A DNA stretch of 64,000 bases from Candidatus Rifleibacteriota bacterium (lineage in GTDB: Bacteria; Muiribacteriota; Ozemobacteria; Ozemobacterales; Ozemobacteraceae): the NCBI GenBank assembly GCA_028689875.1, contig JAQVCG010000003.1:3662-67661 (forward strand). The letters are read 5' to 3'. This document shows positions 5,765-21,291 of the stretch, in pieces. The notes beneath the pieces are model-generated. The model was not told the origin of the DNA, did no database searches, and was given only the letters and a program-made list of their open reading frames with translations. Made by a program: the position numbers and the translations under genes. How positions within the stretch are numbered: position 1 is the stretch's first letter; every line of letters starts with the position of its first letter.

Positions 5765-6205
5765 ATGGCTGTTAAAGTTTCAATATGGCAAACATTCAGT
5801 AAACTTAAATTAGAATTTGGACTCATCATTCTTTGCCTTTTACAATTTATTAAAATCATGTTCACGCTTATTACAGCAGGCCCCCAATTTAAAGGCATTT
5901 TTGAGGGTCTCAATGTCGAATTGCCTACTGTCAGCATAATTATATTAAGCTTTAATGACCTGTTTTATTCCTGGTGGTTTATAATTTTGCCGTTGATTAT
6001 TGTTATTCCCTTAGGCATAGCAATAGCTTGCATGAAAATCCTATTTACTAAAACAGCACAAAACCCTGATAGCGACTCAACTATTAAGCTACAATCCGTA
6101 ATTACTATTCTCTCTCTAATAACCATTGTATCGTTGGCATTTATAGGTGAAGCAATCAATAACGCAATTATGGCGCCCCTTCTGAGACTTGTTAACCCAA
6201 TGTAA
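5765..6205 (+). CDS. small 3-TM membrane protein resembling the membrane core of PilC/GspF platform proteins (no cytoplasmic T2SSF domains)
   Basis: A GGAG sits 7 nt upstream of the ATG. PQFKGIFEGLNVELPTVSIIILSFNDLFYSWWFIILPL matches the conserved TM1-loop-TM2 segment of PilC/GspF (compare P. aeruginosa PilC [37 protein letters not shown]). The C-terminal AIMAPLLRLV resembles the PilC terminal AMYLPIFQL. Confidence 0.45.
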   Translation: MAVKVSIWQTFSKLKLEFGLIILCLLQFIKIMFTLITAGPQFKGIFEGLNVELPTVSIIILSFNDLFYSWWFIILPLIIVIPLGIAIACMKILFTKTAQNPDSDSTIKLQSVITILSLITIVSLAFIGEAINNAIMAPLLRLVNPM

Positions 6206-9606: not shown

Positions 9607-9776
9607 ATAAGTTTCCTTGTTTTTTGGTACAGAATAACAAGTTTTTATTCTGCGGTCAAACTAATTAAGAGTGAAGTTTGAGAGTTTTAAGGTAAATATT
9701 TCTTTTTTTTTAATATTTGACGATAGATAGATATAGATAAAGATATATTTGGGCGAATATGCAAATCGGAGGCTTT

Positions 9777-11939
9777 ATGAAACCTAACATTTATTCTCAA
9801 AACATGAAAGCTTTGAGAAAAAACCTTCCTGAGCTGGCAAAGTTGATATCGGGGGAGTTAACTGCCGACTGCGAATACATAGTTGAAGAATCTAAAAGTA
9901 AAGAACTTACTTTAGCGATTAAAAGCGTCGACAAAACCACTCAGATACACAGCAAATACGACCCTGTTCGCGAGGCAAAGCAGCAGATCGAAAAATCAGA
10001 GATTGTAAACCCGAAACTTTTGGTTATATGCGGTTTAGGGCTAGGTTATCATGTTAAAGCAGCCTTAGAAAGCTTCAAAAAAGATATTGCTTACCTTTTT
10101 ATCATTGAAAGAGATCTTTCGGCCCTTAGAATAGCTGTCGAACACGTAGATTTGAGCGATTTGTTCAAAGACAAGCGCATAAAATGGCTCATCGGGCTCA
10201 AAGAAACTGAGGCTTACGCGGCTTGTTACAGCGCAATCAACCGCGAGGGCCTTTCCATGCAACTTAATTTAAAAACCATAACAGTATTCTCGCAACCTGC
10301 GCTTACAACGCTTTACGCCGACTACTACAAAGAAATGATGCGGCATTTTAAAGAAGCGGGGCACGCGACCATCTTCAACTACGGCAATTCGTCTGACGAT
10401 TCGCTGATTGGGCTGTATAACATATTAGACAACATAAACATTATAGTCAGAAACCCCGGCATTAAAGACCTTTACAACTCTTTTAAAGGGGTGCCCGGAA
10501 TTATTGTTTCGACGGGGCCTTCGTTGAGCAAAAACATTGAAAAACTCAAGCAGGCGGTGGGCAAAAGCATTATTGTGGCGGCAGATGCGTCGCTTGCGCC
10601 GATGTATAAGAGGAACATTAAGCCCGACATGACAGTGAGTTTAGAGCGCATAACCAAGACCGGGCACATGTATGAAGAGCTGGACGAGGATTACAAGAAA
10701 GACATTTATTTAGCGGCAACGCCGGTCATTATGAATATGGCTTACGAACAGTGGAACGGGCCGAAAATCATTGTTTACAGAGATTTTGCACATTTTAAGT
10801 GGGTCGGCATTGATAGAGGGATTTTGCCTATCGGGCCGTCTTGTTCGAATCAGGCATTTCAGATTTTGAAGGCTATGGGTTGCGACCCCATAATTTTGGT
10901 GGGGCAAGACTGTGCATTCGAAAGTCTCGAAAAGACACACGCCGACGATGTTTCGGCTATGACGAAGCTTAATTTGCGTGAAACGGATTTGATTAAAGTT
11001 AAGGGCAACTACACTGATTGGGTTTATACGAACAACATTTACAACATTTTCAGAAAGAATTTTGTGACTGATATTGCGGCATACAGCGGCAAATGCATAA
11101 ACTCAACCGAAGGCGGCGCATTTATTGAAGGTACTGAGCTTATGACACTGCAAGAGGCCATAGACAAATATTGCACAAAAGAAATAGACATTAAAGAAGT
11201 GTGCAATAAAAAGCTAAAAACCCCCACAGACAGTGATGTGTCATCAAGCTGGGCAACTTTTAAGAGAGTTTTAAAAGAAACAATCAAAGAAGTTGAAGAG
11301 GTAATTTCGGGTTGCAACAAAGGGGTTGAAGAGATTACTAAATTTGAAGAACGTCTTGCCAACGAGGGCTACAATGAAATTGAAGACTTTTTAGAGCGGT
11401 TTCCGGAAAATGATTTAAACGCTGTATTTTTGATACTTAACAAGATCAGGCTTAAAATAGTTACATCGGGCAAGTATTTCAATTTGTTTCTAATGCACAT
11501 TATTCAAATGATTATAATACATTTTGAAATAGAGTTTAATGCGCTGCCAAGCATGTCGCAAGATCAAAAGCGGTGCAGATTGCAGGCCATAAGAATGCTT
11601 AAGAAATGGTTCCCACAAATTCGCGATGTCTCAAGACGTTCACTTGAACACATTAAGAGCCAAAAAGCTGAAAATTACAGAAACGAAAGAGTTTTCGAGC
11701 GGGTAATTCTTGAAGACAAGCCTTTATTTGACGTAAGCTGGGAAGAATACAAAAAAGGCGTGTTAGATCAAAACCCCACCGATGCTGACAGGCACAGTCT
11801 GCTGTTTTATTATGCAAAAGAGCAGGAAAACATGCGTAAAGAAAACCACTACATGACGAAAAGAGATTTAGAACGTCACCAACAGCGCATAGCAGAGCTG
11901 AAGCAAGCGTTAAAAGACTATTTCAACTTAGAAGTATAA
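9777..11939 (+). CDS. Maf-like (motility-associated-factor / DUF115, MptE-like) putative glycosyltransferase
   Basis: The central block GVPGIIVSTGPSLSKNIEKLKQ...IIVAADASLAPMYKRNIKPDMTVSLER is the hallmark GPSL...D..L....I.PD motif of DUF115/Maf proteins. I prefer the ATG at 9777, which has a GGAGG 4 nt upstream; the ORF track starts at 9759. Confidence 0.7.
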   Translation: MKPNIYSQNMKALRKNLPELAKLISGELTADCEYIVEESKSKELTLAIKSVDKTTQIHSKYDPVREAKQQIEKSEIVNPKLLVICGLGLGYHVKAALESFKKDIAYLFIIERDLSALRIAVEHVDLSDLFKDKRIKWLIGLKETEAYAACYSAINREGLSMQLNLKTITVFSQPALTTLYADYYKEMMRHFKEAGHATIFNYGNSSDDSLIGLYNILDNINIIVRNPGIKDLYNSFKGVPGIIVSTGPSLSKNIEKLKQAVGKSIIVAADASLAPMYKRNIKPDMTVSLERITKTGHMYEELDEDYKKDIYLAATPVIMNMAYEQWNGPKIIVYRDFAHFKWVGIDRGILPIGPSCSNQAFQILKAMGCDPIILVGQDCAFESLEKTHADDVSAMTKLNLRETDLIKVKGNYTDWVYTNNIYNIFRKNFVTDIAAYSGKCINSTEGGAFIEGTELMTLQEAIDKYCTKEIDIKEVCNKKLKTPTDSDVSSSWATFKRVLKETIKEVEEVISGCNKGVEEITKFEERLANEGYNEIEDFLERFPENDLNAVFLILNKIRLKIVTSGKYFNLFLMHIIQMIIIHFEIEFNALPSMSQDQKRCRLQAIRMLKKWFPQIRDVSRRSLEHIKSQKAENYRNERVFERVILEDKPLFDVSWEEYKKGVLDQNPTDADRHSLLFYYAKEQENMRKENHYMTKRDLERHQQRIAELKQALKDYFNLEV

Positions 11940-12311
11940 CTAGAAATCGGAGTAATTTTTACCGTCGAGGCTTTGGCCTTCGGCACCGGATTTCACATCA
12001 TAAAGATCGTTTAGGCCCTCTTCGGAGGGCACATAGACCCAAGTATCAGTGCGATTGGTAAAGGGATCTAGGGGCACAGATCGCAGATAACCCTCTTTAA
12101 CGAGAGTATTTAGTGATTCGGGCCATTTTTCGTTGTCTTTGTAGTAATCACTTATCAGAGAGCGAAAAGTCTGCAAATTCTGTTTAAGAGCAGACTCTTT
12201 AGCACGGGTTACAGATTTGCTGTACATTGGCGTGACGGCGGCGACTAGAACACCTATGATTGCAACTACCACGCTGAGTTCTATAAGAGTAAAGCCTTTT
12301 TTGCGTGTCAT
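11940..12311 (-). CDS. GspG-like type II secretion / type IV pilin-family pseudopilin
   Basis: It has a class III signal peptide and the N-methylation motif MTRKKG|FTLIELSVVVAIIGVL, with Glu at position +5. The body (LxxALxxYYxDNxxWPxSLxxLVxEGYLxxVPxDPF...Y...SGAEG..LDG) is colinear with GspG/EpsG. Confidence 0.85.
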   Translation of the reverse strand: MTRKKGFTLIELSVVVAIIGVLVAAVTPMYSKSVTRAKESALKQNLQTFRSLISDYYKDNEKWPESLNTLVKEGYLRSVPLDPFTNRTDTWVYVPSEEGLNDLYDVKSGAEGQSLDGKNYSDF

Positions 12312-12348
12312 TTGAATAACCTCTAAATCTATTTAAATTGGCGATTTA

Positions 12349-13389
12349 TCAAACTTTTGTTGATCTTAAAAGTTCAAGAAATGCGTCAGCAGAGGGTCTG
12401 TCGATGGCATTTTTCAGAATAAGGTGGTTTATATATTCTCCAAAGAGTGCACTGCCCATGGCTAGATTCATTATGTTGCCTTCCAGTTGTGAAGCTTTGC
12501 CTTTTTGAATGATTCCTGCGGCAATGCTGTTCATAATCAAGGTTTCAAAAGCAGGCACAATCTGGTTGCCATTTTTTGTTGAAATTAGTGCCTGAGAACA
12601 GACTCCAATCAGGTTGTCAGCCAGCACCTGCCACACGTAATCTCTGTGTTCTTCGGGAAAATCGAAAACAAACTTTTCGATTGCTGCGACGAAACCTAAT
12701 GAAGACATAGCAAGTATGACAAAACTGCCGCCTGCAACCAGCTCTAGTATGCTTTTAAACGGGATAGTTTGTTTTATGTCAGATATAATAAAGGTATCGA
12801 CGTCCATTTTTTTTGCAAAATTGAGTCCTTGGTTGAAGTCAAGAATGTCTTTGCCTATTTGTCTTTGTGTTATTCGAGATTTTTTAGATTCAAAGTTAAA
12901 TTCTATGGGGTCTTCGATAGTAATTATGTGTCTCGAGAATTTGTTATTAAGGTGCTCAACGATAGCCGCTATTGTTGTAGATATGCCTGATCTTGCAGGG
13001 CCGGTGATAATAAACAAACCTTTTCTTGATTCAATTAAAGGAATTAATGCATCAGGGAAGTTTATTTCTTTAAGCCCCGGTATTTTATTGCTGATTATTT
13101 TAATGATCAGCACCGGTTTTTCTTGTGCTTGAAATACTGTTAAGCGTATGTTTGCGGATAATTTTCCGAAGATATTTATTTCAAAAAAGGTTTTTTTTGC
13201 CACTTTTTTAAGTTCTTCGGGAGCCAATAACTCGTTTAACACGCCTGTCACGTCTTCTTCAACAATTATCGGCAAATCCATGCCACGAAGCTGTTTATTT
13301 TTGCGCATAAGCGGCTTTGAGCCTATTTTGAGCTGAATTTCATTGCCGCCTTCGCTGATTACTTTTTCTACCAGTTTTCCTATATCCAT
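12349..13389 (-). CDS. PilT-family ATPase paralogue, degenerate (Walker A Lys replaced by Ile; Walker B and His box altered)
   Basis: It is PilT-sized (346 aa) and colinear with PilT. The Asp box TIEDPIEF is intact. Walker A reads GPARSGIST, with the Ile codon ATA at 12982-12984 on the minus strand. Walker B reads FIISDIKQ instead of ILVGEMRD. The His-box histidines are replaced (GGSFVILAMSS). Confidence 0.8.
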   Translation of the reverse strand: MDIGKLVEKVISEGGNEIQLKIGSKPLMRKNKQLRGMDLPIIVEEDVTGVLNELLAPEELKKVAKKTFFEINIFGKLSANIRLTVFQAQEKPVLIIKIISNKIPGLKEINFPDALIPLIESRKGLFIITGPARSGISTTIAAIVEHLNNKFSRHIITIEDPIEFNFESKKSRITQRQIGKDILDFNQGLNFAKKMDVDTFIISDIKQTIPFKSILELVAGGSFVILAMSSLGFVAAIEKFVFDFPEEHRDYVWQVLADNLIGVCSQALISTKNGNQIVPAFETLIMNSIAAGIIQKGKASQLEGNIMNLAMGSALFGEYINHLILKNAIDRPSADAFLELLRSTKV

Positions 13390-13400
13390 TTTTCACTCTC

Positions 13401-14441
13401 CTAGTTGCTGAACCGCTTTTTGTCGATAGAGAATTCGGCTGCCGCCTTTTTGGTAATATAGCCGGTTCTAAGAAGTTCAGCCAGTTGCGAATCGAAGGTT
13501 TTCATTCCTGCTATCTCGCCTTGCGACTGCAAAGTTCTGAACATTGTGAAGTTGTTGTTTCTGATTAAAGAGCGCAGTTGGGGAGTGTTGACCATAACGT
13601 CAAAAATAGCTTTGCGCCCGCTTTGGTCTGTTTTTGGCACCAAACGCTGACTTATAATCATAGTCAGCTGAGATGCCAACTTAGAGCGCAACATTTCACG
13701 TTCAGAAGGGCTTCTTAAATTTATAATTCTTTCTAATATTTGCAGACAATCGCCGCCTTCGGTTCCGCCTATTACTGTGGTTCCGCTTTCACAAAGGCTT
13801 AGAGCTTTATCCATTGCATCGGGATAATTGAGTGAGTCAGAAACAACCACATCGGGGTTAACTCTGCCCATTTCACACAGACCGGCATAGAAATTACTTA
13901 TATCCAGAGGAATACTTCTTTGAATAATGGCAGATTTATTATCTTTGAACACGTATTCAACGGGGTTTTCAATAGTAATTATATTTTTTTCAAAATAGCT
14001 GTTATAAAAATTTATAATCGAAGCAATAGTGCTTGTTTTGCCCTCGCCTGAAGAGCTTCCGACCAAAATTAGGCCGGCATGTTGCGCCAGAACCTTTTTA
14101 ATGGCTTCAGAGAATCCCAATTCTTGAAAACCATAAATTTTGTCACTTATAAAGCGCACCGACATGGCAAAACGCCCTCTATCAAAAAAAACAGAGAAGC
14201 GCAGTCTGCCCACAGTTTCGACATCTGCCGCATAAGTTACTTGCCTATATTTACCGAGTATCTCACGGGCTTTTGGGGAGCTTGTTTCTAGTATTATTTT
14301 TTTAATATGCTCTTCAGCGACTGTTAACGAATCTAAGGTTTGTATTGTGCCGTTAACCCGATAATATACCGGACAATCTGGGTAAAGATGCATATCAGAT
14401 GCACCTTTAACTTTTACAAGCTGACAAACTTTTAAAAGCAT
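13401..14441 (-). CDS. PilT-family ATPase paralogue, degenerate (P-loop Lys retained; Walker B and His box altered)
   Basis: The 346-aa protein is colinear with PilT (ASDMHL..., RFSVF...). Walker A reads GSSSGEGKTST. The Asp box reads TIENPVEY. Walker B reads VVVSDSLNY instead of ILVGEMRD. The His box reads ESGTTVIGGTEGG instead of ETGHLVFGTLHT. Confidence 0.8.
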   Translation of the reverse strand: MLLKVCQLVKVKGASDMHLYPDCPVYYRVNGTIQTLDSLTVAEEHIKKIILETSSPKAREILGKYRQVTYAADVETVGRLRFSVFFDRGRFAMSVRFISDKIYGFQELGFSEAIKKVLAQHAGLILVGSSSGEGKTSTIASIINFYNSYFEKNIITIENPVEYVFKDNKSAIIQRSIPLDISNFYAGLCEMGRVNPDVVVSDSLNYPDAMDKALSLCESGTTVIGGTEGGDCLQILERIINLRSPSEREMLRSKLASQLTMIISQRLVPKTDQSGRKAIFDVMVNTPQLRSLIRNNNFTMFRTLQSQGEIAGMKTFDSQLAELLRTGYITKKAAAEFSIDKKRFSN

Positions 14442-14460
14442 TTTTGTATCCTACCTTCTT

Positions 14461-16605
14461 TTACATTCTCTGCAGCAATTCTAACACATTTTTAAGAACT
14501 TGGCTGTCAGGCGGAAGCGTTTTTCTTAAGCCCTCAAGTATGATTCGGGCTTTATCAGTTTCGCCGATAGCAAAATGGCAGAGCGCCAAGTGATAAGTCG
14601 ACGACAAATCGCGAGCATTAGCCTTTAACCCCACATTTAAAGCCGCAATAGCTTCAGCATATTTTCTTTGGTTGTAATAAGCCAGTCCTAAGGCCCCGAA
14701 TACTTTGATAATATTCTTTTTGTCGTCGCTTTTAAGATATTTTTTAAGTATTTGGTAACATTTTGCAAGATTTGCCCAATCTTTGTTTCTAAAATAAACT
14801 TGCCCCAGTAAAATACCGGAATTTATTCTTTCGGGGTTCAGTTCAAACACCTTTGATAGAGCGCTCTCAGCGCCTGCCATATCGCCCAGTTTATATAGAG
14901 TGCTGCCCAAAAAGTAGCCTGCATCGGCATTTTCCGGTTGAATTGCCAAAAATTCAGTAAACACATCGCGTGCACGAGCAAAATCTTCGTTAAGATAATA
15001 TTCGCGGCCTTTTGCCATAAGTTCTTCAGGGGTCATTGCGGGCACATCAAAGTTAGCTACACCCGCCATATCGGCTTTAACTTCTTTTTCAAAGGCTTTT
15101 AGAAGCACCGTCGAATAGGCATCAACATTTTGCACAAAAGCCCCTACCTCGCCTGCAATACGCACGAACACGGTTTTTTCTTGTTCTCTCTTTTTATCTG
15201 CCAGTCCCTGCGCAACCTCTTCAAAGACCGGTAATTCACCGTTTAAAAGCAAGGCGCGATAGTATTCTGCAAAAACTCCGGCTCTTACCGGACCCAAAAA
15301 CTTTTTGGCTTTAACAAGACATTCACGGGCGCCCAAATGCCCTAACGCGGCTATAAGCCACTCAATTTCTTCTTCTTTTTCCAGTTTGATTCTGTTGAGT
15401 ATTTTTTCTGAAGTCACGCTCAGCTGGTGCTTTACGATATATTTCAATATTACTTCGATAACCGGAGATGAGTTTTCTTTGTCTAATAATTCAACTATTT
15501 TTTCATCAGGGAAATCGTTGATGAAAGTTGCGCATTCAACCGCTTCTCTTCTGACCCATTCGCTTTCATCATTTAGCAAAGGCAGAATTTCGCGCAGTCC
15601 GACAGCGCTTGTTAGTGACAAAGCTGCTTTTAATGCCATTTTTCGCACACCAGGATTACTATCGCCTAAAAGCTTATGAATATACTCTTCGCGTTTGGGA
15701 TTTTCGATAACCGACAAAACATATGCGGCCGAACGTCTTGTTGGAGCATCGGCGCTTACTATCATAGCATCAAGTTCATCACTCACAGCTTTTGGGTCTG
15801 CCTTTGCAAGCGCCAAACACACATTGGCTCTGACACGATTATTCGGGTGACCGTAAAAGTTTTTGAGTTTGCGTTTCATTTCCAGAGCGGGAATTTTTAG
15901 CATGGAAATAGCTTCGACGGCATTAGCTTGAATACGCGGGTCAAATGATTCTAAGCCGCTTTCAAAGGTCTTAAGCAGCCGCCCTTCTGCAAAGGTTGAA
16001 AGTGACGATATAATTATTGCTTTAAGACGAGCATCGCGAGAGGTTTCGAACTGTCCTACCAGCGCCGGCACAGCTTCGGGATCCTGCATTTTAGATAAAA
16101 TTTCTAATACGTTAATAACTATCCATTCGTCAGGGTCGCTGAGCAAGCTGCAAAGCGCATGCACAACATCGCGGCCGCCCATTTTAAAAAGGGCACGTGC
16201 AGAATAATATCTGACCATCCTGTCTTCGTCGTGCAAAAGCTCCATTAAGGATTTGGTGGCCATTGGGTCGCCAATTTCGCCCAGCACGCGCACTATTTCG
16301 TCTTTATAAAGGGCATCGGGGTCTTGCAGTCTGTCTATGAGCTTTGATACGGGCGAGCTGTTTTTGAAATACCCTAATGCGGTTATAGGCTCAACATAGT
16401 CGTAAAAATGATCGAATGCGCGCGTTAACACAGACAAGGATTCGGGGTCACCTATTTTTCCTAACGCCAAAAGCGATTCAAGTCTTAATGTGTCGGATGA
16501 ATCATCATCGGCGGCGATCTTTTCGAGTGTCTGGGTCGCAGGTTTCAGCAGTCTGCGTGCCGCTTTAACATATCTAAACGATTCAATTTCAAAAGTAGCA
16601 GTCAT
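14461..16605 (-). CDS. HEAT-repeat (PBS-lyase-type) plus C-terminal TPR protein
   Basis: The N-terminal two thirds carry repeated DP..VR..A..AL..IGDP.A...L motifs (for example HDEDRMVRYYSARALFKMGGRDVVHALCSLLSDPDEWIV). The C-terminal third carries TPR units (YFLGSTLYKLGDMAGAESALSKVFELNP...). The start codon overlaps the stop of the upstream pilT as ATGA at 16602-16605. Confidence 0.8.
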   Translation of the reverse strand: MTATFEIESFRYVKAARRLLKPATQTLEKIAADDDSSDTLRLESLLALGKIGDPESLSVLTRAFDHFYDYVEPITALGYFKNSSPVSKLIDRLQDPDALYKDEIVRVLGEIGDPMATKSLMELLHDEDRMVRYYSARALFKMGGRDVVHALCSLLSDPDEWIVINVLEILSKMQDPEAVPALVGQFETSRDARLKAIIISSLSTFAEGRLLKTFESGLESFDPRIQANAVEAISMLKIPALEMKRKLKNFYGHPNNRVRANVCLALAKADPKAVSDELDAMIVSADAPTRRSAAYVLSVIENPKREEYIHKLLGDSNPGVRKMALKAALSLTSAVGLREILPLLNDESEWVRREAVECATFINDFPDEKIVELLDKENSSPVIEVILKYIVKHQLSVTSEKILNRIKLEKEEEIEWLIAALGHLGARECLVKAKKFLGPVRAGVFAEYYRALLLNGELPVFEEVAQGLADKKREQEKTVFVRIAGEVGAFVQNVDAYSTVLLKAFEKEVKADMAGVANFDVPAMTPEELMAKGREYYLNEDFARARDVFTEFLAIQPENADAGYFLGSTLYKLGDMAGAESALSKVFELNPERINSGILLGQVYFRNKDWANLAKCYQILKKYLKSDDKKNIIKVFGALGLAYYNQRKYAEAIAALNVGLKANARDLSSTYHLALCHFAIGETDKARIILEGLRKTLPPDSQVLKNVLELLQRM

Positions 16606-17639
16606 TCAACTATCTCTTTCATTATGTTACTAATCAGCTTAGGGTCAACTCTTTCGTCTTTTAGAATTTCCCCGAGTGAATCTTTGAGTGTCTTACACCC
16701 CTCTTTTCTGGCAAGCATCAAGGCTGATTTAAGCTGATTTGATTTTCTTTCGCGTATCATGTTTCTCATGGCCGAGTTTAGTATCATGAGCTCGTAAGCC
16801 ATGGCGCGTTCTTTTTTATGAATACAAGGCAAAAGGATTTGTGAAATAAGCCCTATAAGTGACATTGAAAGCTGGGTTCTGATTTCATCGTGTCTGTGGC
16901 CGGGAAACATATTGATTATGCGGTCAATTGTTTGCACTGCCCCGACTGTGTGAAGGGTCGAAAAGACAAGGTGTCCTGTTTCAGCGGCTGTAAGCACCAT
17001 TTCAATAGTTTCTACATCGCGCATTTCGCCTACCAGAATTACATCGGGGTCTTCTCTGAGAGCGTTCATTAAAGCACTCTGATAAGACGATGATGTTACG
17101 CCGATTTCACGTTGTGTAAAAATTGATTTTTTTTCTTTATAAACAAATTCTATGGGGTCTTCGATTGTAACAACATGCCTTGATGAGCTGCGGTTTATTT
17201 CGTTGACAATCGAGGCAAGAGTATGTGTTTTACCGGAGTTTGCGGGGCCGGTTACTAAGAACAGCCCGCGTGGCTTAAGAGCAATTTCTTTTAAAATTGG
17301 GGGCAATCCAAGATTGTCGACAGACGGAATGTCAAGGGGAATAAATCGAAAAGCGCCCGACAGACAACCTCTTTGCATATAAATACAAACGCGCACGCGC
17401 CAACGGTTTTTATATTTAGCCATAAAGTTGGCCTCAAAGGTTTGCTTAAGATCTGTTTGCGACTTTACGTCCATTAGGGGCAAAAACAAATTTGGCATTT
17501 CTTGGTAGGCCAAAGGTTGTTCTGCAAGAGGAATAAGCCTGCCGCCGACTCTTATAATTGGCGGCGAACCGGCTTTAAGATGCAAATCTGAGGCTTTTCG
17601 TTCAATTGCGATTTCAAAATATTTATATATTTTCAGCAT
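16602..17639 (-). CDS. pilT: PilT-type (retraction-type) type IV pilus ATPase, catalytic motifs intact
   Basis: All four catalytic boxes are intact: Walker A GPANSGKT, Asp box TIEDPIEF, Walker B DPDVILVGEMRD and His box ETGHLVFSTLHT. At 345 aa it lacks a PilB/GspE N-terminal extension. Confidence 0.85.
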   Translation of the reverse strand: MLKIYKYFEIAIERKASDLHLKAGSPPIIRVGGRLIPLAEQPLAYQEMPNLFLPLMDVKSQTDLKQTFEANFMAKYKNRWRVRVCIYMQRGCLSGAFRFIPLDIPSVDNLGLPPILKEIALKPRGLFLVTGPANSGKTHTLASIVNEINRSSSRHVVTIEDPIEFVYKEKKSIFTQREIGVTSSSYQSALMNALREDPDVILVGEMRDVETIEMVLTAAETGHLVFSTLHTVGAVQTIDRIINMFPGHRHDEIRTQLSMSLIGLISQILLPCIHKKERAMAYELMILNSAMRNMIRERKSNQLKSALMLARKEGCKTLKDSLGEILKDERVDPKLISNIMKEIVE

Positions 17640-17641
17640 AA

Positions 17642-18757
17642 TCAGACCCTTTGCCCGACGACTTCGTTAAGCAGTTTATGAAGAGAAGCAGGGTGCGGTG
17701 CAACTGAGAAAGCGTCTTCTTTAGATACAACGCGATCTTTAACAAGTCGGGCGAGCGACATTTCCATTGTGCACATACCCTGCTCAACGCCTGTTTCGAG
17801 ATAAGAGGGCAGCATATGTATTTTGCCTTCGGCGATTAGAGAGCGGACTGCCGATGTGTTCAGCAATATTTCGAATGCTGCGACACGGCCGCCATCGATT
17901 TTTGGAACTAAGACCTGTGAAACCACGCCGCGCAGAACCATAGAAAGCTGTAAAAGTATTTGCTGATGCTTTGATTCAGGAAATACATTGACGATTCTCT
18001 CTGCAGTTGCAACAGCCGATGTTGTATGCAGAGTTGCCAAAACAAGTTTTCCGGTTTCAGCGGCATTTAGGGTCAAAGAAATTGTAGAAGGCTCGCGCAT
18101 TTCGCCTACAACGACTATATCCGGGTCTTGGCGCAATACGGTCAAGAGACCGTCATAGAAGCTCAGGCAGTCAGAGCCGACCTGGCGTTGGTTAAAATAG
18201 CTTTTTTTGTCTTCGAATTGGTATTCGATGGGGTCTTCGAGGCTTACTACATGGCGGGCGGCTTCGTTGTTAACGTAGTTTAGGTAGCTTGCCATGGTTG
18301 AAGTTTTACCGGCACCGGTGGGGCCTGTTATTAAAATAAGTCCGTTAGGCTGCTCAATGAGCCTTCTTGCGGCCTGTGGCAAACCGATTTCGTCGAAAGT
18401 CATGATGCGGTATGGAATAACGCGAAAAACAGCGCCGAAGCCGTTAAGGTCGGTATAAAGATTAACTCTGAAACGGCATATTCCCTCGAGAGCATATGAA
18501 AAGTCAAGTTCGTGCTTTTCTCTGAATATGCGCTCTTGCTCTTGATTCAGCAAAACTTCGATAATTTTTTCGAAATCATATTTGTTGAATTTATATTCTT
18601 TGAGCTGCTTGATTACACCATCAATTCTGATAGCGGGAGGTTTTCCGACTTTAAGATGCAAGTCAGAAGCGTTTTGTTCGAAAGTAAGCTTAAGCAATTT
18701 AAATAAACTTCGTTCGTCTGCCATAGTTTTAGAGTATACCTGCTTATTGATGTACAT
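17642..18757 (-). CDS. pilT: PilT-type type IV pilus ATPase, catalytic motifs intact
   Basis: All four catalytic boxes are intact: Walker A GPTGAGKT, Asp box LEDPIEY, Walker B DPDIVVVGEMRE and His box ETGKLVLATLHT. The alternative start at 18724 (MADERSL) cannot be excluded. Confidence 0.85.
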   Translation of the reverse strand: MYINKQVYSKTMADERSLFKLLKLTFEQNASDLHLKVGKPPAIRIDGVIKQLKEYKFNKYDFEKIIEVLLNQEQERIFREKHELDFSYALEGICRFRVNLYTDLNGFGAVFRVIPYRIMTFDEIGLPQAARRLIEQPNGLILITGPTGAGKTSTMASYLNYVNNEAARHVVSLEDPIEYQFEDKKSYFNQRQVGSDCLSFYDGLLTVLRQDPDIVVVGEMREPSTISLTLNAAETGKLVLATLHTTSAVATAERIVNVFPESKHQQILLQLSMVLRGVVSQVLVPKIDGGRVAAFEILLNTSAVRSLIAEGKIHMLPSYLETGVEQGMCTMEMSLARLVKDRVVSKEDAFSVAPHPASLHKLLNEVVGQRV

Positions 18758-18806
18758 TCAAGAATAAACTATTCATAGGGGGGATGTAAATATATAAAAC
18801 TTTGCT

Positions 18807-18835
18807 TTGAAAAAATTACTTAAGTTTGGTATATT
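18807..18835 (+). promoter_or_regulatory. putative sigma70-type promoter with extended -10 for the HEAT/TPR gene
   Basis: TTGAAA (18807-18812), then a 17-nt spacer ending in TGg, then TATATT (18830-18835). It lies 36 nt upstream of the ATG at 18871. Confidence 0.4.
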
Positions 18836-18870
18836 ATCACTACTTCTTATTTTTACAGGGAACTCTTACA

Positions 18871-21291
18871 ATGACTAAAACAGCGGTTCTGATGAACATA
18901 CAACCTCTTATTGCGAGACTTATCAACAATTTTTTGATTGGAGAGTATGATTTAAGACGCGAATCAGCTATAGCACTATCAAAGTTCAAAGGTGAAAAAG
19001 CCACAGACTTTTTACTTGAAACCTATGAAAGCGACAACATTCAAGACTTTATGGCGCTTGCGCTAGGCAACATAGACAGCTCAAAGTCGGTGGGTTTGCT
19101 AATAAATGCACTGAATGATTCCCAACAAGAAGTAAGATTTAATGCTGCTCGCGCACTTGGCATGCTCGAAAACCCCGAAGCATTCGACATTTTAATGGAA
19201 GCTTTGAACACATACATTGAAACAGGCGCAGGCACATCGTTGCCGACAGAGGGCGAAGGGATAGAAGAACATTCTTCCCAGCTGTTTTTTGAAGAAGATG
19301 CGATTATCGGCGCAATAATAGCAGTTGGAAAAATCAAGAACTGGCGCGCAATTTCGCTGCTAAAAAAACTGTTAGGGCAAGAAAAAAGCCCGCGAATAAG
19401 GGCATCGATAATTATGGCTCTTGGTATGATGGCATCAGACAAGCTTATGCCTGTATTTCAGTCAGCTTTGCGCGATGAAGACCCCCGCGTAAGAGCAAAT
19501 GCCATTGAAGCAATCGAAGTTCTGAAGTCTAGTTCGATTGTGGGAATTTTGCAGCCCTACCTCGAAGACCCAAGCAACCGTGTACGTGCGAACGTTGCTA
19601 AGGCAATTTGGAAATACGGCGACTTCGAAGTAAGTGAAACTTTGCAGCAAATGCTTTCTCACAAAGATAAATGGTACAGAGCATCGGCAGCTTATGCTAT
19701 TGGCGAAACCGGCGATGCAAAGTTTCTGCGGCAGCTTTCCCAATCATTAAAAGACGAAGACCCTGATGTGCGTAGAAATGCGACAAACGCTATCAGAAAA
19801 CTGGAACTTAAAACTGCCCTGCCCCACGTTCGGCCCATGCTAAACGATCCAAATTTTGATGTGCGTGTCGAAGCAGTTCTGGCAATCACCAGATGCGCTC
19901 CCGATGATGCATTGGAAATTTTAAAAGAAAAATTGCCAAAAGAAGAAAACTTTATTGTTCAGGCAACTTTAATCTCTTGTTTGGGGCAATTAGGCAACGC
20001 CGAAATAATTGATTTGATTACGCCATATCTTGAATCAGAAGACCCGCGCGTGGTTTCTAACACAATAGAAGCCATATCTAAGATGACACGAGAACCTCAA
20101 TTAGAGCTCGTGCAGGGCATTAACAACCTTTTAAGCCATGACGATAACCGGGTTAAGAGCACAGCCATAAGAAATCTTTGGAGCTGGGGCAAATACGACG
20201 TATTAGACAATTTAAACTCCCTGTTTGCCTCTGACGAGAAAAAAATGGTTTTGTCGGCAACCTTTGTGTTAGGCGAAATCGGTAAAGAAATCAGCTTAAA
20301 CGATGAAATGGCAAAATCGGTCAACGAAATATTATCAAATCTTCTCGAAGACCCCGATGCCATAAGACAAGCAATTGGCAGCGCACCCAAATCAGATATA
20401 GCCTCACCTGCAACTGCAAAAGCCTCCGAACCGGAACAAACAAATGTCATTGAACAACCTAAGGCAGCAGAAAAGAGCAAACCCGAAGTGGCAAAATTCA
20501 GAGACAAGCTTGAAAAAGTCTCTGAAAACGCGGCGCAACCTATTGAGCCGCCACAGGAACCCGTAGTTACACCGCAAATAATCGCTGACACTCGTTTTGC
20601 CGACGATATTGAGCTTGCAAATGAATATGTAACAAGCAGAAACTTTGATTCTGCCGAAAAAATATACAAAAGCATATATACTGCAGAACCTAAACACTTG
20701 AAAAATCTGTTGGCTTATGCAAACCTGTGCTTTATGCAAAAACGCTACAACGAAGCAGCAGACCTGTATAACCGAGCCCTTGAAATCAACCCGAATATAG
20801 TTAAGGCTCTATTTAACTTAGGTACGATTTGTTTTTATACCCGAAAATATGAAAATGCAGTTAATTACTTGGCAAAAGCATTACAGCTTTATCCAAAGAT
20901 TTTAGGTGCATACTTAATTCTGGCGCAAATTTATCAAATTGCGGGAAAATACAGCGAAAGCATAAAGCTTTTATCTCATGCTGTCACTCTATCGCCGCGC
21001 AATCCGGTAATTTACCAAAAGCTTTCTGCACTGCACATTCAACTTAAACAGTATGATGATGCTATTAAAGTGCTTAAGCGCGCTGTAGAAATTTCACCGG
21101 CCGATGTTGAATCAAGGCTGATATTAGGTTATTGTCTCGAATACTGCAACAAACATCAAGATGCATTTATAATGATTGATTCAGCTATAAAAGCGGCCGC
21201 AAATTCGGCTAATACAGAGGTTTCGTTTAAGCAGCTTCATAAAGCATACGTCTTTTTGAATCAAATTCTCGAAGAACAAAAAATAATCTGA
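18871..21291 (+). CDS. HEAT-repeat plus TPR protein (paralogous architecture to 14461-16605)
   Basis: The N-terminal half carries HEAT units (EDPRVRANAIEAIEVL, EDPSNRVRANVAKAIW, EDPDVRRNATNAIRKL, DPNFDVRVEAVLAI). A Pro/Glu/Ala-rich low-complexity linker follows, then C-terminal TPR units (YNRALEINPNIVKALFNLGTICF...). I prefer the ATG at 18871 because the TTG at 18826 lies inside the predicted promoter. Confidence 0.8.
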   Translation: MTKTAVLMNIQPLIARLINNFLIGEYDLRRESAIALSKFKGEKATDFLLETYESDNIQDFMALALGNIDSSKSVGLLINALNDSQQEVRFNAARALGMLENPEAFDILMEALNTYIETGAGTSLPTEGEGIEEHSSQLFFEEDAIIGAIIAVGKIKNWRAISLLKKLLGQEKSPRIRASIIMALGMMASDKLMPVFQSALRDEDPRVRANAIEAIEVLKSSSIVGILQPYLEDPSNRVRANVAKAIWKYGDFEVSETLQQMLSHKDKWYRASAAYAIGETGDAKFLRQLSQSLKDEDPDVRRNATNAIRKLELKTALPHVRPMLNDPNFDVRVEAVLAITRCAPDDALEILKEKLPKEENFIVQATLISCLGQLGNAEIIDLITPYLESEDPRVVSNTIEAISKMTREPQLELVQGINNLLSHDDNRVKSTAIRNLWSWGKYDVLDNLNSLFASDEKKMVLSATFVLGEIGKEISLNDEMAKSVNEILSNLLEDPDAIRQAIGSAPKSDIASPATAKASEPEQTNVIEQPKAAEKSKPEVAKFRDKLEKVSENAAQPIEPPQEPVVTPQIIADTRFADDIELANEYVTSRNFDSAEKIYKSIYTAEPKHLKNLLAYANLCFMQKRYNEAADLYNRALEINPNIVKALFNLGTICFYTRKYENAVNYLAKALQLYPKILGAYLILAQIYQIAGKYSESIKLLSHAVTLSPRNPVIYQKLSALHIQLKQYDDAIKVLKRAVEISPADVESRLILGYCLEYCNKHQDAFIMIDSAIKAAANSANTEVSFKQLHKAYVFLNQILEEQKII

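Follow-up and report, generated by a model that had tools for sequence, protein, structure and literature searches.

PilT-D, a conserved PilT-fold pseudo-ATPase lacking the Walker A lysine in the candidate phylum Rifleibacteriota

The usual picture of a PilT-family motor is a homohexamer whose subunits are identical and all active, and the cooperation between PilT and PilU is only recently starting to be resolved, by way of engineered Walker A mutants. What place is there, then, for a PilT copy that has lost the Walker A lysine in nature? The question is raised by a gene in a 64,000-nucleotide stretch of DNA from a Candidatus Rifleibacteriota bacterium (GenBank assembly GCA_028689875.1, contig JAQVCG010000003.1, positions 3,662 to 67,661; hereafter the window), where a run of minus-strand genes encodes two canonical PilT proteins (PilT-A and PilT-B), a HEAT/TPR protein (H), two degenerate PilT paralogues (PilT-C and PilT-D) and a prepilin-type protein (P). 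An initial annotation had taken PilT-D for a conserved pseudo-ATPase rather than a decaying pseudogene, and we find this to be the case. As to its role, we favour, with a probability of about 0.65, a reading in which PilT-D is a non-hydrolysing and probably empty protomer that sits with PilT-C in a static ring or stack, acting as an adaptor, bridge or brake. The gene and its motifs are listed here, with residues numbered as in Pseudomonas aeruginosa PilT, to which the D-family profile aligns without offset over residues 1–335.

12349–13389, minus strand: PilT-D, a 346-amino-acid PilT-fold pseudo-ATPase, intact open reading frame (ORF)
13398–13401, minus strand: GGAG Shine-Dalgarno sequence, 8 nucleotides (nt) upstream of the start; it overlaps the upstream gene's stop codon
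13150–13152, minus strand: N-domain arginine site R80, replaced by Asn
13144–13146, minus strand: N-domain arginine R82, kept
13099–13101, minus strand: N-domain arginine site R97, replaced by Lys
12976–13002, minus strand: degenerate P-loop GPARSGIST (G130 to T138)
12991–12993, minus strand: Arg133, codon AGA
12982–12984, minus strand: Ile136 at the position of PilT Lys136, codon ATA
12898–12918, minus strand: Asp box IEDPIEF (residues 158–164, within ITIEDPIEF), retained
12769–12792, minus strand: Walker B position FIISDIKQ (residues 200–207)
12700–12729, minus strand: former His box GSFVILAMSS (residues 221–230)

Most of what had been read from the gene itself stands: the P-loop is GPARSGIST, its isoleucine codon ATA is one transversion from AAA, the ORF is intact, the Asp box is kept, and both the length and the N-terminal region are PilT-like. 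Two of the earlier claims hold in part. At the Walker B position, where PilT has G203 and the catalytic E204, the window protein has S203 and D204, with Lys206 replacing Arg206; Asp204 and Lys206 are invariant across the orthologues, but Ser203 occurs only in the window's own sub-clade, most orthologues having Gly203 (and thus GD at 203–204). Likewise, the replacement of His222 and His229 by serine is true of the window protein, but the His box of most orthologues is GHFVILSMQT, in which His222 is kept and residue 229 is Gln. The combination of an SD Walker B with a double-Ser His box is limited to this sub-clade (the window protein, P0001–P0004 and locus L003). Within the Asp box E159, D160, P161, I162 and E163 are invariant in PilT-D and common to canonical PilT. 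Asn80 and Lys97 are each at least 95% conserved, at sites where canonical PilT has Arg in 95–99% of sequences, and the C-terminal AIRNLIRE-type motif, present as AVRSLIAE in PilT-A and AMRNMIRE in PilT-B, is gone from PilT-D (IAAGIIQK or TAMSIIQK).

The initial annotation had predicted that the lysine-to-isoleucine change would be shared by orthologues, and about 60 sequences bear this out, none of them with GKS/T. A search of 5.8 billion proteins yielded about 40 close relatives of PilT-D (E-value 1e-74 or better, 48–93% identity), beyond which the matches fall sharply to ordinary PilTs at about 30% identity. In 37 full-length aligned D proteins (47–93% identity) G130, P131, R133, S134, G135, I136, S137 and T138 are invariant, and the motif GP[AT]RSGIST is found in 32 of 32 D genes (31 loci and the window). 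The codons beneath these residues are not fixed: Ile136 is encoded by ATT in 19 genes, ATC in seven and ATA in six, and Arg133 by all six arginine codons. Since the codons vary and the residues do not, selection held the amino acids while the codons drifted.

The ratio of non-synonymous to synonymous substitution rates (dN/dS) gives the same picture. Compared with its 93%-identical relative in locus L001, the one pair used, saturation at synonymous sites affecting almost every more distant pair, PilT-D has a dN/dS of 0.048 (NG86) or 0.041 (YN00). This range of 0.04–0.05 is well below 1, as had been anticipated, and is shared by other genes of the same two genomes, including the neighbouring fumarase (0.037), the 3' part of PilT-C (0.033) and the pilin P (0.056); a Maf-like gene (0.094) and a hypothetical gene (0.188) give higher values. 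The non-synonymous distances of PilT-D are about 1.5–2 times those of both canonical paralogues. No frameshift or stop codon was found in D at any locus examined, again in line with expectation. Contigs from landfill and other metagenome runs (two studies, independent runs) carry identical P-loop codons, including ATA, and in a co-occurring strain the loop codons differ only synonymously, with one substitution, I127V, just upstream that is also present in P0001. That ATA lies a single base change from AAA might have pointed to a sequencing error, a mutation private to one strain or the beginning of pseudogene decay. This explanation, to which we now give practically no credence, is excluded by the invariance of the orthologues, the three isoleucine codons, the dN/dS, the independent runs and the lack of disrupted copies.

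The loss of the lysine is one of many changes. When 63 D sequences are compared with 188 canonical PilT-like proteins, 25 positions are fixed in PilT-D to a non-canonical residue, and most of these are residues of the nucleotide site and of subunit interfaces. They include R80N, R97K, T132A, G133R, K136I, E204D, R206K, T220G and R239K, and His229 is separately replaced by Gln or Ser. A further 28 scaffold positions are common to PilT-D and canonical PilT, among them the whole Asp box, Q175, R176, D196, D198 and L268. In PilT the contacts H230–T221, T221–T133 and D164–R81 build the closed and open interfaces between units of the hexamer, and H230 and E164 touch ATP and magnesium (10.1101/672212; these residues are in Geobacter metallireducens numbering, which is that of P. 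aeruginosa PilT plus 1). Because the replacements in PilT-D fall on such sites, the protein has lost the nucleotide ligands as well as residues that couple nucleotide state to the conformation of the ring. Other invariant residues, Q301, N305, I306, S313, F316 and F337 in the C-terminal region, are peculiar to PilT-D and suggest a conserved protein-protein surface.

With the Walker A lysine, the catalytic glutamate, the γ-phosphate histidine, two of three N-domain arginines and the interface contacts of T132 and T220 all gone, PilT-D would be unable to act as a motor and is most probably nucleotide-free. The same residues can be read in another way, namely that PilT-D is a ligand sensor whose remodelled P-loop still binds ATP, ADP or another nucleotide such as a cyclic dinucleotide and signals its occupancy to the motors without hydrolysis, Arg133 taking over part of the role of the lysine. 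The invariance of G130, G135, S137, T138, E159, D160, E163 and D204, together with the new and equally invariant R133 maintained through six arginine codons, speaks for such a sensor, and an empty pocket would not obviously need invariant P-loop and Asp-box residues. The hydrophobic isoleucine at the lysine position is itself invariant, however, and two N-domain arginines and His229, which contact the γ-phosphate in PilT-like ATPases, are missing; Pfam and NCBIfam profile scans detected no known second-messenger-binding domain or motif in PilT-D. We therefore consider a sensor unlikely and keep to the reading of PilT-D as a probably empty protomer.

The fold of PilT-D is that of PilT. An AlphaFold2 model built from a 37-sequence alignment (mean predicted local distance difference test score, pLDDT, 90.3; predicted template modelling score, pTM, 0.84) shows the two-domain arrangement of an N-terminal PAS-like domain and a RecA-like C-terminal domain, and the comparison with PilT hexamer subunits that had been proposed gives a close superposition. 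In Foldseek the model matches Thermus PilT2, Geobacter PilT4, Pseudomonas and Aquifex PilT, and PilU; against the PilT structures the template modelling (TM) scores are 0.86–0.91 over 330–350 columns and the E-values 1.8e-32 to 5e-30 (for PilT2 and PilT4, 1e-32 to 1e-30), and DotB, PilB and GspE rank far behind. Pfam T2SSE (PF00437) matches above its cut-off (45.2 bits against 24.9, E-value 6.6e-12) over residues 115–206 only, and the NCBIfam PilT/PilU model TIGR01420, the best full-length match (residues 3–334), scores 217.1 and so falls below its cut-off of 319.1. Of the hallmarks of PilT and PilU, the Walker A lysine, the Walker B Glu204, the His box and the AIRNLIRE motif are absent from PilT-D, and the Asp box and the fold are present. 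PilT-D is thus a member of the T2SSE superfamily descended from PilT that lacks the catalytic features and fails the curated family cut-off.

The D family is confined to Rifleibacteriota in the sequences we surveyed. Among species-representative genomes 26 loci have a D orthologue (43–57% identity), and the next matches are at 34% identity or less. The genomes that carry it are labelled Candidatus Riflebacteria or Rifleibacteriota, Rifleibacterium amylolyticum, Ozemobacter, or are unnamed metagenome-assembled genomes (MAGs). Two contigs with D orthologues bear the labels Candidatus Methylomirabilis sp. and Erysipelotrichia (L021 and L030); the first has the full Rifleibacteriota gene order and the second, 1.3 kb long, the C-D pair, and both contigs were probably misbinned. 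When 1.84 billion cluster representatives were searched with a D-family profile, one 50%-identity D cluster and two fragments came first, followed by tandem PilT-PilT fusions and ordinary PilTs. At the lysine position of 311 PilT-like domains we count 250 K, 48 I (all of the D family), six R, and one each of L, V and Q.

A maximum likelihood tree recovers PilT-A, PilT-B, PilT-C and PilT-D each as a monophyletic group (100/100), and C and D are not sisters. Their stems are long (1.71 substitutions per site for C and 1.47 for D, with 0.75 for A and 0.44 for B). The sister of D, with 98/98 support, is a degenerate PilT family of the Sumerlaeota (BRC1; P0270–P0282 and P0158; L089:8001–9239), although this grouping may be a product of long-branch attraction. 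The Sumerlaeota proteins resemble PilT-D in that the Walker A lysine is replaced (GSGRS[ST], mostly Lys to Arg), the Walker B position, [GS][NH]L, has no Glu, and there is no His box; the member that groups with D, P0158, reads GAARSGLST, with Lys replaced by Leu. Unlike PilT-D they keep the N-domain arginines and have a different gene context: in L089 a single further T2SSE gene precedes the gene by two positions, and no HEAT/TPR gene is present. PilT-D is therefore a PilT-derived pseudo-ATPase that is not unique in kind. Outside Rifleibacteriota we did not find the five-gene module A-B-H-C-D in the contexts of P0158, P0201 or P0150: P0201, the sister of C, is on a 4.9-kb contig where unrelated genes adjoin it, P0150 stands beside one T2SSE gene, and the contig of P0158 is 2.4 kb long.

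The genes around PilT-D in the window are as follows.

17642–18757, minus strand: PilT-A, canonical (GPTGAGKTS, VVVGEMRE, ATLHT); TIGR01420 score 413.4, above the cut-off
16602–17639, minus strand: PilT-B, canonical (GPANSGKTH, VGEMRD, STLHT, AMRNMIRE); TIGR01420 score 391.1, above the cut-off
14461–16605, minus strand: H, a 714-amino-acid protein with HEAT repeats (Pfam HEAT_2, 1.2e-44) and TPR families
13401–14441, minus strand: PilT-C, the second degenerate paralogue, always directly upstream of D; TIGR01420 score 272.9, below the cut-off
11940–12311, minus strand: P, a 123-amino-acid prepilin-type (GspG-like) protein (Pfam N_methyl and T2SSG; TIGR02532), 37 nt downstream of D
18826–21291, plus strand: H', a second HEAT and TPR protein, divergent from the operon

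The minus-strand array A-B-H-C-D-P, in which PilT-D is the fifth gene, has spacings of 2, -4, 19, 11 and 37 nt, with a 4-nt overlap between the stop of PilT-B and the start of H. Orthologues of PilT-A begin at MADERSLF, 11 codons into the longest ORF of the window gene; the internal ATG at 18724 is probably the real start. The four PilT paralogues of the window are 21–39% identical to one another, and A and B are, among solved structures, closer to PilT than to PilU. Every Rifleibacteriota locus that has sufficient flanking sequence shows the order A-B-H-C-D, with H always in the same position and D always directly after C. Where contigs reach beyond A, most loci have a divergent HEAT/TPR gene upstream of it, and one or two pilin-like genes follow D in most loci. 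The rumen/gut clade (L005, L022, L023 and L025) keeps A-B-H-C-D, but D is not followed by a pilin gene; L005 has a gene for a ParE toxin there instead. Promoter and terminator scans of 11800–19000 gave counts no higher than in shuffled sequence, with all terminator-like hits intragenic, so that the operon structure rests on the gene spacings. In an anaerobic-digester metatranscriptome, contigs of a relative (about 85–90% identity) cover P, D, C, H, B and A, one of them spanning the P-D junction; the window's own strain is in none of the RNA runs, and these contigs weakly support transcription of the whole array.

Two observations concern other genes of these loci. In the window a Maf/MptE-like putative glycosyltransferase gene is convergent to the pilin (9759–11939, plus strand), as it is at L001:2137–4299 and L003:11462–13624; it stands beside the pilin only in the window's own sub-clade, and its product may modify the pilin. 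In two deep-branching Rifleibacteriota MAGs PilT-B is split into two ORFs (L028:3901–4930 and L031:5627–6692), which could be a frameshift or an assembly error.

The constant neighbour of PilT-D, PilT-C, is a second pseudo-ATPase. Its Walker A is SSSGEGKT, with the first Gly changed to Ser and the lysine kept, and the N-domain arginines are also kept; its Walker B position, VVSDSLNY, has D203 and S204 and lacks the Glu, and TEGG stands in place of the His box. These features are conserved in 30 of 30 C orthologues, which keep the lysine and arginines and have neither the glutamate nor the His box. An AlphaFold2 model of PilT-C (pLDDT 83.1) has the PilU/PilT fold, with its best Foldseek E-value to PilU (9n32), and we predict that PilT-C can probably bind ATP but not hydrolyse it.

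The two degenerate proteins also go together in evolutionary rate. Among the pairwise distance matrices of 21 complete loci, those of C and D correlate best (r=0.935), and the partial correlation after A, B and H are regressed out is still 0.77 (permutation p about 0.0005). PilT-A, PilT-B and H make up a second rate module (partial r 0.48–0.67, with H against A and B at 0.65–0.67), and the partial correlations between modules are about +0.1 to -0.4, none of those tested by permutation being significantly positive. This covariation is consistent with a partnership of C and D and is not proof of one. Natural tandem PilT-PilT fusions (P0121–P0133, P0141 and P0183; 650–1020 amino acids, in many clusters) might have served as a Rosetta stone for a C-D complex, but we rejected them for this purpose: their halves are nearer to canonical A and B, and their top rank comes only from two domains adding up. 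They show only that paired PilT domains exist, several with one degenerate half, as in the GSGRS first half of P0129.

Work in Vibrio cholerae indicates what a dead PilT subunit can do. Rings of PilT K136A form, bind PilC and PilU, and support retraction powered by PilU, and PilT E204A appears to be ATP-locked and hampers PilU (PMC6821130). PilT and PilU with a dead Walker A still dock stably on the machine, where PilT links PilU to the platform and the rings of the two proteins stack (10.1101/2025.10.30.685630). PilT-D is the natural counterpart of the K136-type mutants and PilT-C that of the E204-type. On this model PilT-D would have been fixed early in Rifleibacteriota as a non-catalytic PilT-fold subunit, made from one operon with the motors A and B, the scaffold H, the dead paralogue C and usually a pilin. 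PilT-D and PilT-C would assemble into a static ring or ring stack that docks on the pilus platform, on active PilT rings or on both, and that serves PilT-A and PilT-B, the live motors of a type IV filament, perhaps with the HEAT/TPR proteins as organisers. The suggestion of the initial annotation that PilT-D is a structural or regulatory protomer is something we likewise infer, and it is strengthened by the fixed operon with C, the covariation in rate of C and D, and the published behaviour of PilT K136A (PMC6821130).

A more specific arrangement is conceivable, though we hold it only tentatively and would not expect it to be the case: C and D could form a permanently asymmetric, hydrolysis-dead ring that, on a HEAT/TPR scaffold, would act as stator or bridge for PilT-A and PilT-B, the two live motors. 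PilT-C would be the 'ATP-locked' (E204-type) protomer and PilT-D the 'empty' (K136-type) one, either in a C3D3 hexamer in which they alternate, imitating PilT in its C3 open-closed-open-closed state, or as two stacked dead rings in the manner of PilT and PilU. The α subunit of F1 and the B subunit of V1 are non-catalytic paralogues of the catalytic subunit, with a disabled or pseudo-active site, that are retained under selection as ring partners, and they offer an analogy, from a different ATPase superfamily, for a possible alternating arrangement of C with D or of D with active subunits.

The docking of dead subunits also bears on a simpler proposal, in which homohexamers of PilT-D alone are a competitive brake that displaces PilT-A and PilT-B rings at the platform and holds the filament extended, PilT-C having a separate job. 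PilT-D has the full-length PilT fold; Walker-A-dead PilT docks stably (10.1101/2025.10.30.685630), and PilT K136A, when overproduced, inhibits the native motor (PMC6821130). But PilT-D lacks the AIRNLIRE-type motif retained by A and B, the contact residues between its units are replaced, it co-varies specifically with C, and it is encoded in a fixed and stoichiometric-looking operon with the motors instead of being separately regulated. A brake of PilT-D alone thus seems rather improbable to us.

Several points weigh against the shared static ring of C and D that we prefer. The invariant P-loop glycines, Ser137 and Thr138, the Asp box and the new Arg133 may allow some binding of phosphate or of another ligand. 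Conservation, purifying selection, fold, loss of motifs, gene order and the covariation in rate are observed directly; the lack of bound nucleotide, the oligomeric state, the partnership with C and the role as adaptor or brake are inferred. The covariation of C and D could arise, with no contact between them, if both pseudo-enzymes had relaxed in parallel along the same set of lineages, and that neither protein co-varies with A, B or H speaks against a tight association with the live motors. The contigs from the RNA library come from a relative at about 87% identity and may include carry-over of DNA. Finally, no PilB, PilC, PilM or PilQ gene lies in the 64-kb window, where a membrane ORF of 146 amino acids at 5765–6205 (plus strand) has no Pfam match with an E-value below 1e-4, and the link to a working pilus machine therefore rests on the adjacent pilin and on family membership.

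This last point leads to the proposal that A-B-H-C-D is a HEAT/TPR-scaffolded ATPase machine descended from PilT genes in which PilT-D has a role outside type IV filaments. Besides the absence of other pilus machinery from the window, it would accommodate the two large HEAT/TPR proteins as integral and co-evolving parts of the system and the absence of the downstream pilin in the rumen/gut clade. Against it, A and B pass the PilT/PilU cut-off and are closest to solved PilT structures, and in most loci D is followed by at least one prepilin-type gene, often by two. One such role, anti-phage defence, was considered and rejected: no PADLOC defence-system model matches C or D, the HEAT proteins matching generic HEAT/ARM models only. 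We regard a function away from the pilus as very improbable and retain the static ring of C and D serving type IV filament motors.

How far PilT-D has moved from its relatives can be seen by comparison with systems already described. With the PilT of known structure (3JVU and 3JVV of P. aeruginosa, 2EWV of Aquifex and 6OJX, G. metallireducens PilT4) it shares length, two-domain fold and collinear numbering, the Asp box and the 28 scaffold residues, and its gene adjoins genuine PilT genes and a pilin gene; it differs in K136I, E204D, H229Q/S, R80N and R97K, in the replacement of T132, G133 and T220, in the loss of AIRNLIRE and in its long stem branch. The V. cholerae mutants PilT K136A and PilU K134A lack the Walker A lysine as PilT-D does, and their behaviour is that proposed here for PilT-D, but each is a single laboratory change, whereas PilT-D is a natural and ancient paralogue with many further replacements, encoded beside two intact PilTs and PilT-C. 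PilU and the other accessory paralogues, such as those among the four PilTs of Geobacter and the five of Myxococcus, are like PilT-D in being additional copies, some of which need PilT for access to the machine. The Geobacter and Myxococcus paralogues all keep Walker A, Walker B, the Asp box and the His box (PMC5065972; PMC13584747), whereas PilT-D keeps the Asp box only. We found no description in the literature of natural Walker-A-less, degenerate or pseudo-ATPase PilT paralogues, or of pili in Rifleibacteria.

A Walker-A-less PilT-D beside a Walker-B-less PilT-C has thus been kept under strong selection through the whole history of a phylum, together with two live motors and HEAT/TPR proteins. 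The database name 'twitching motility protein PilT' mis-states the likely activity of the D-family proteins, and this case, with the Sumerlaeota family, adds to the signs that pseudo-ATPases recur in this superfamily. If PilT-D and PilT-C are static ring subunits, they would offer a natural system for the docking of dead and live PilT rings on each other and on the platform, a route to trapping defined conformations for structural work, and a handle on why a pilus machine needs copies of its motor that are not motors. Were the asymmetric C/D ring to exist, it would be the first specialisation into catalytic and non-catalytic subunits, as in F1 and V1, in the superfamily of secretion and pilus ATPases. 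PilT-D may in this way be seen as a phylum-wide natural experiment, in uncultured organisms, on the cooperation of PilT-family rings.

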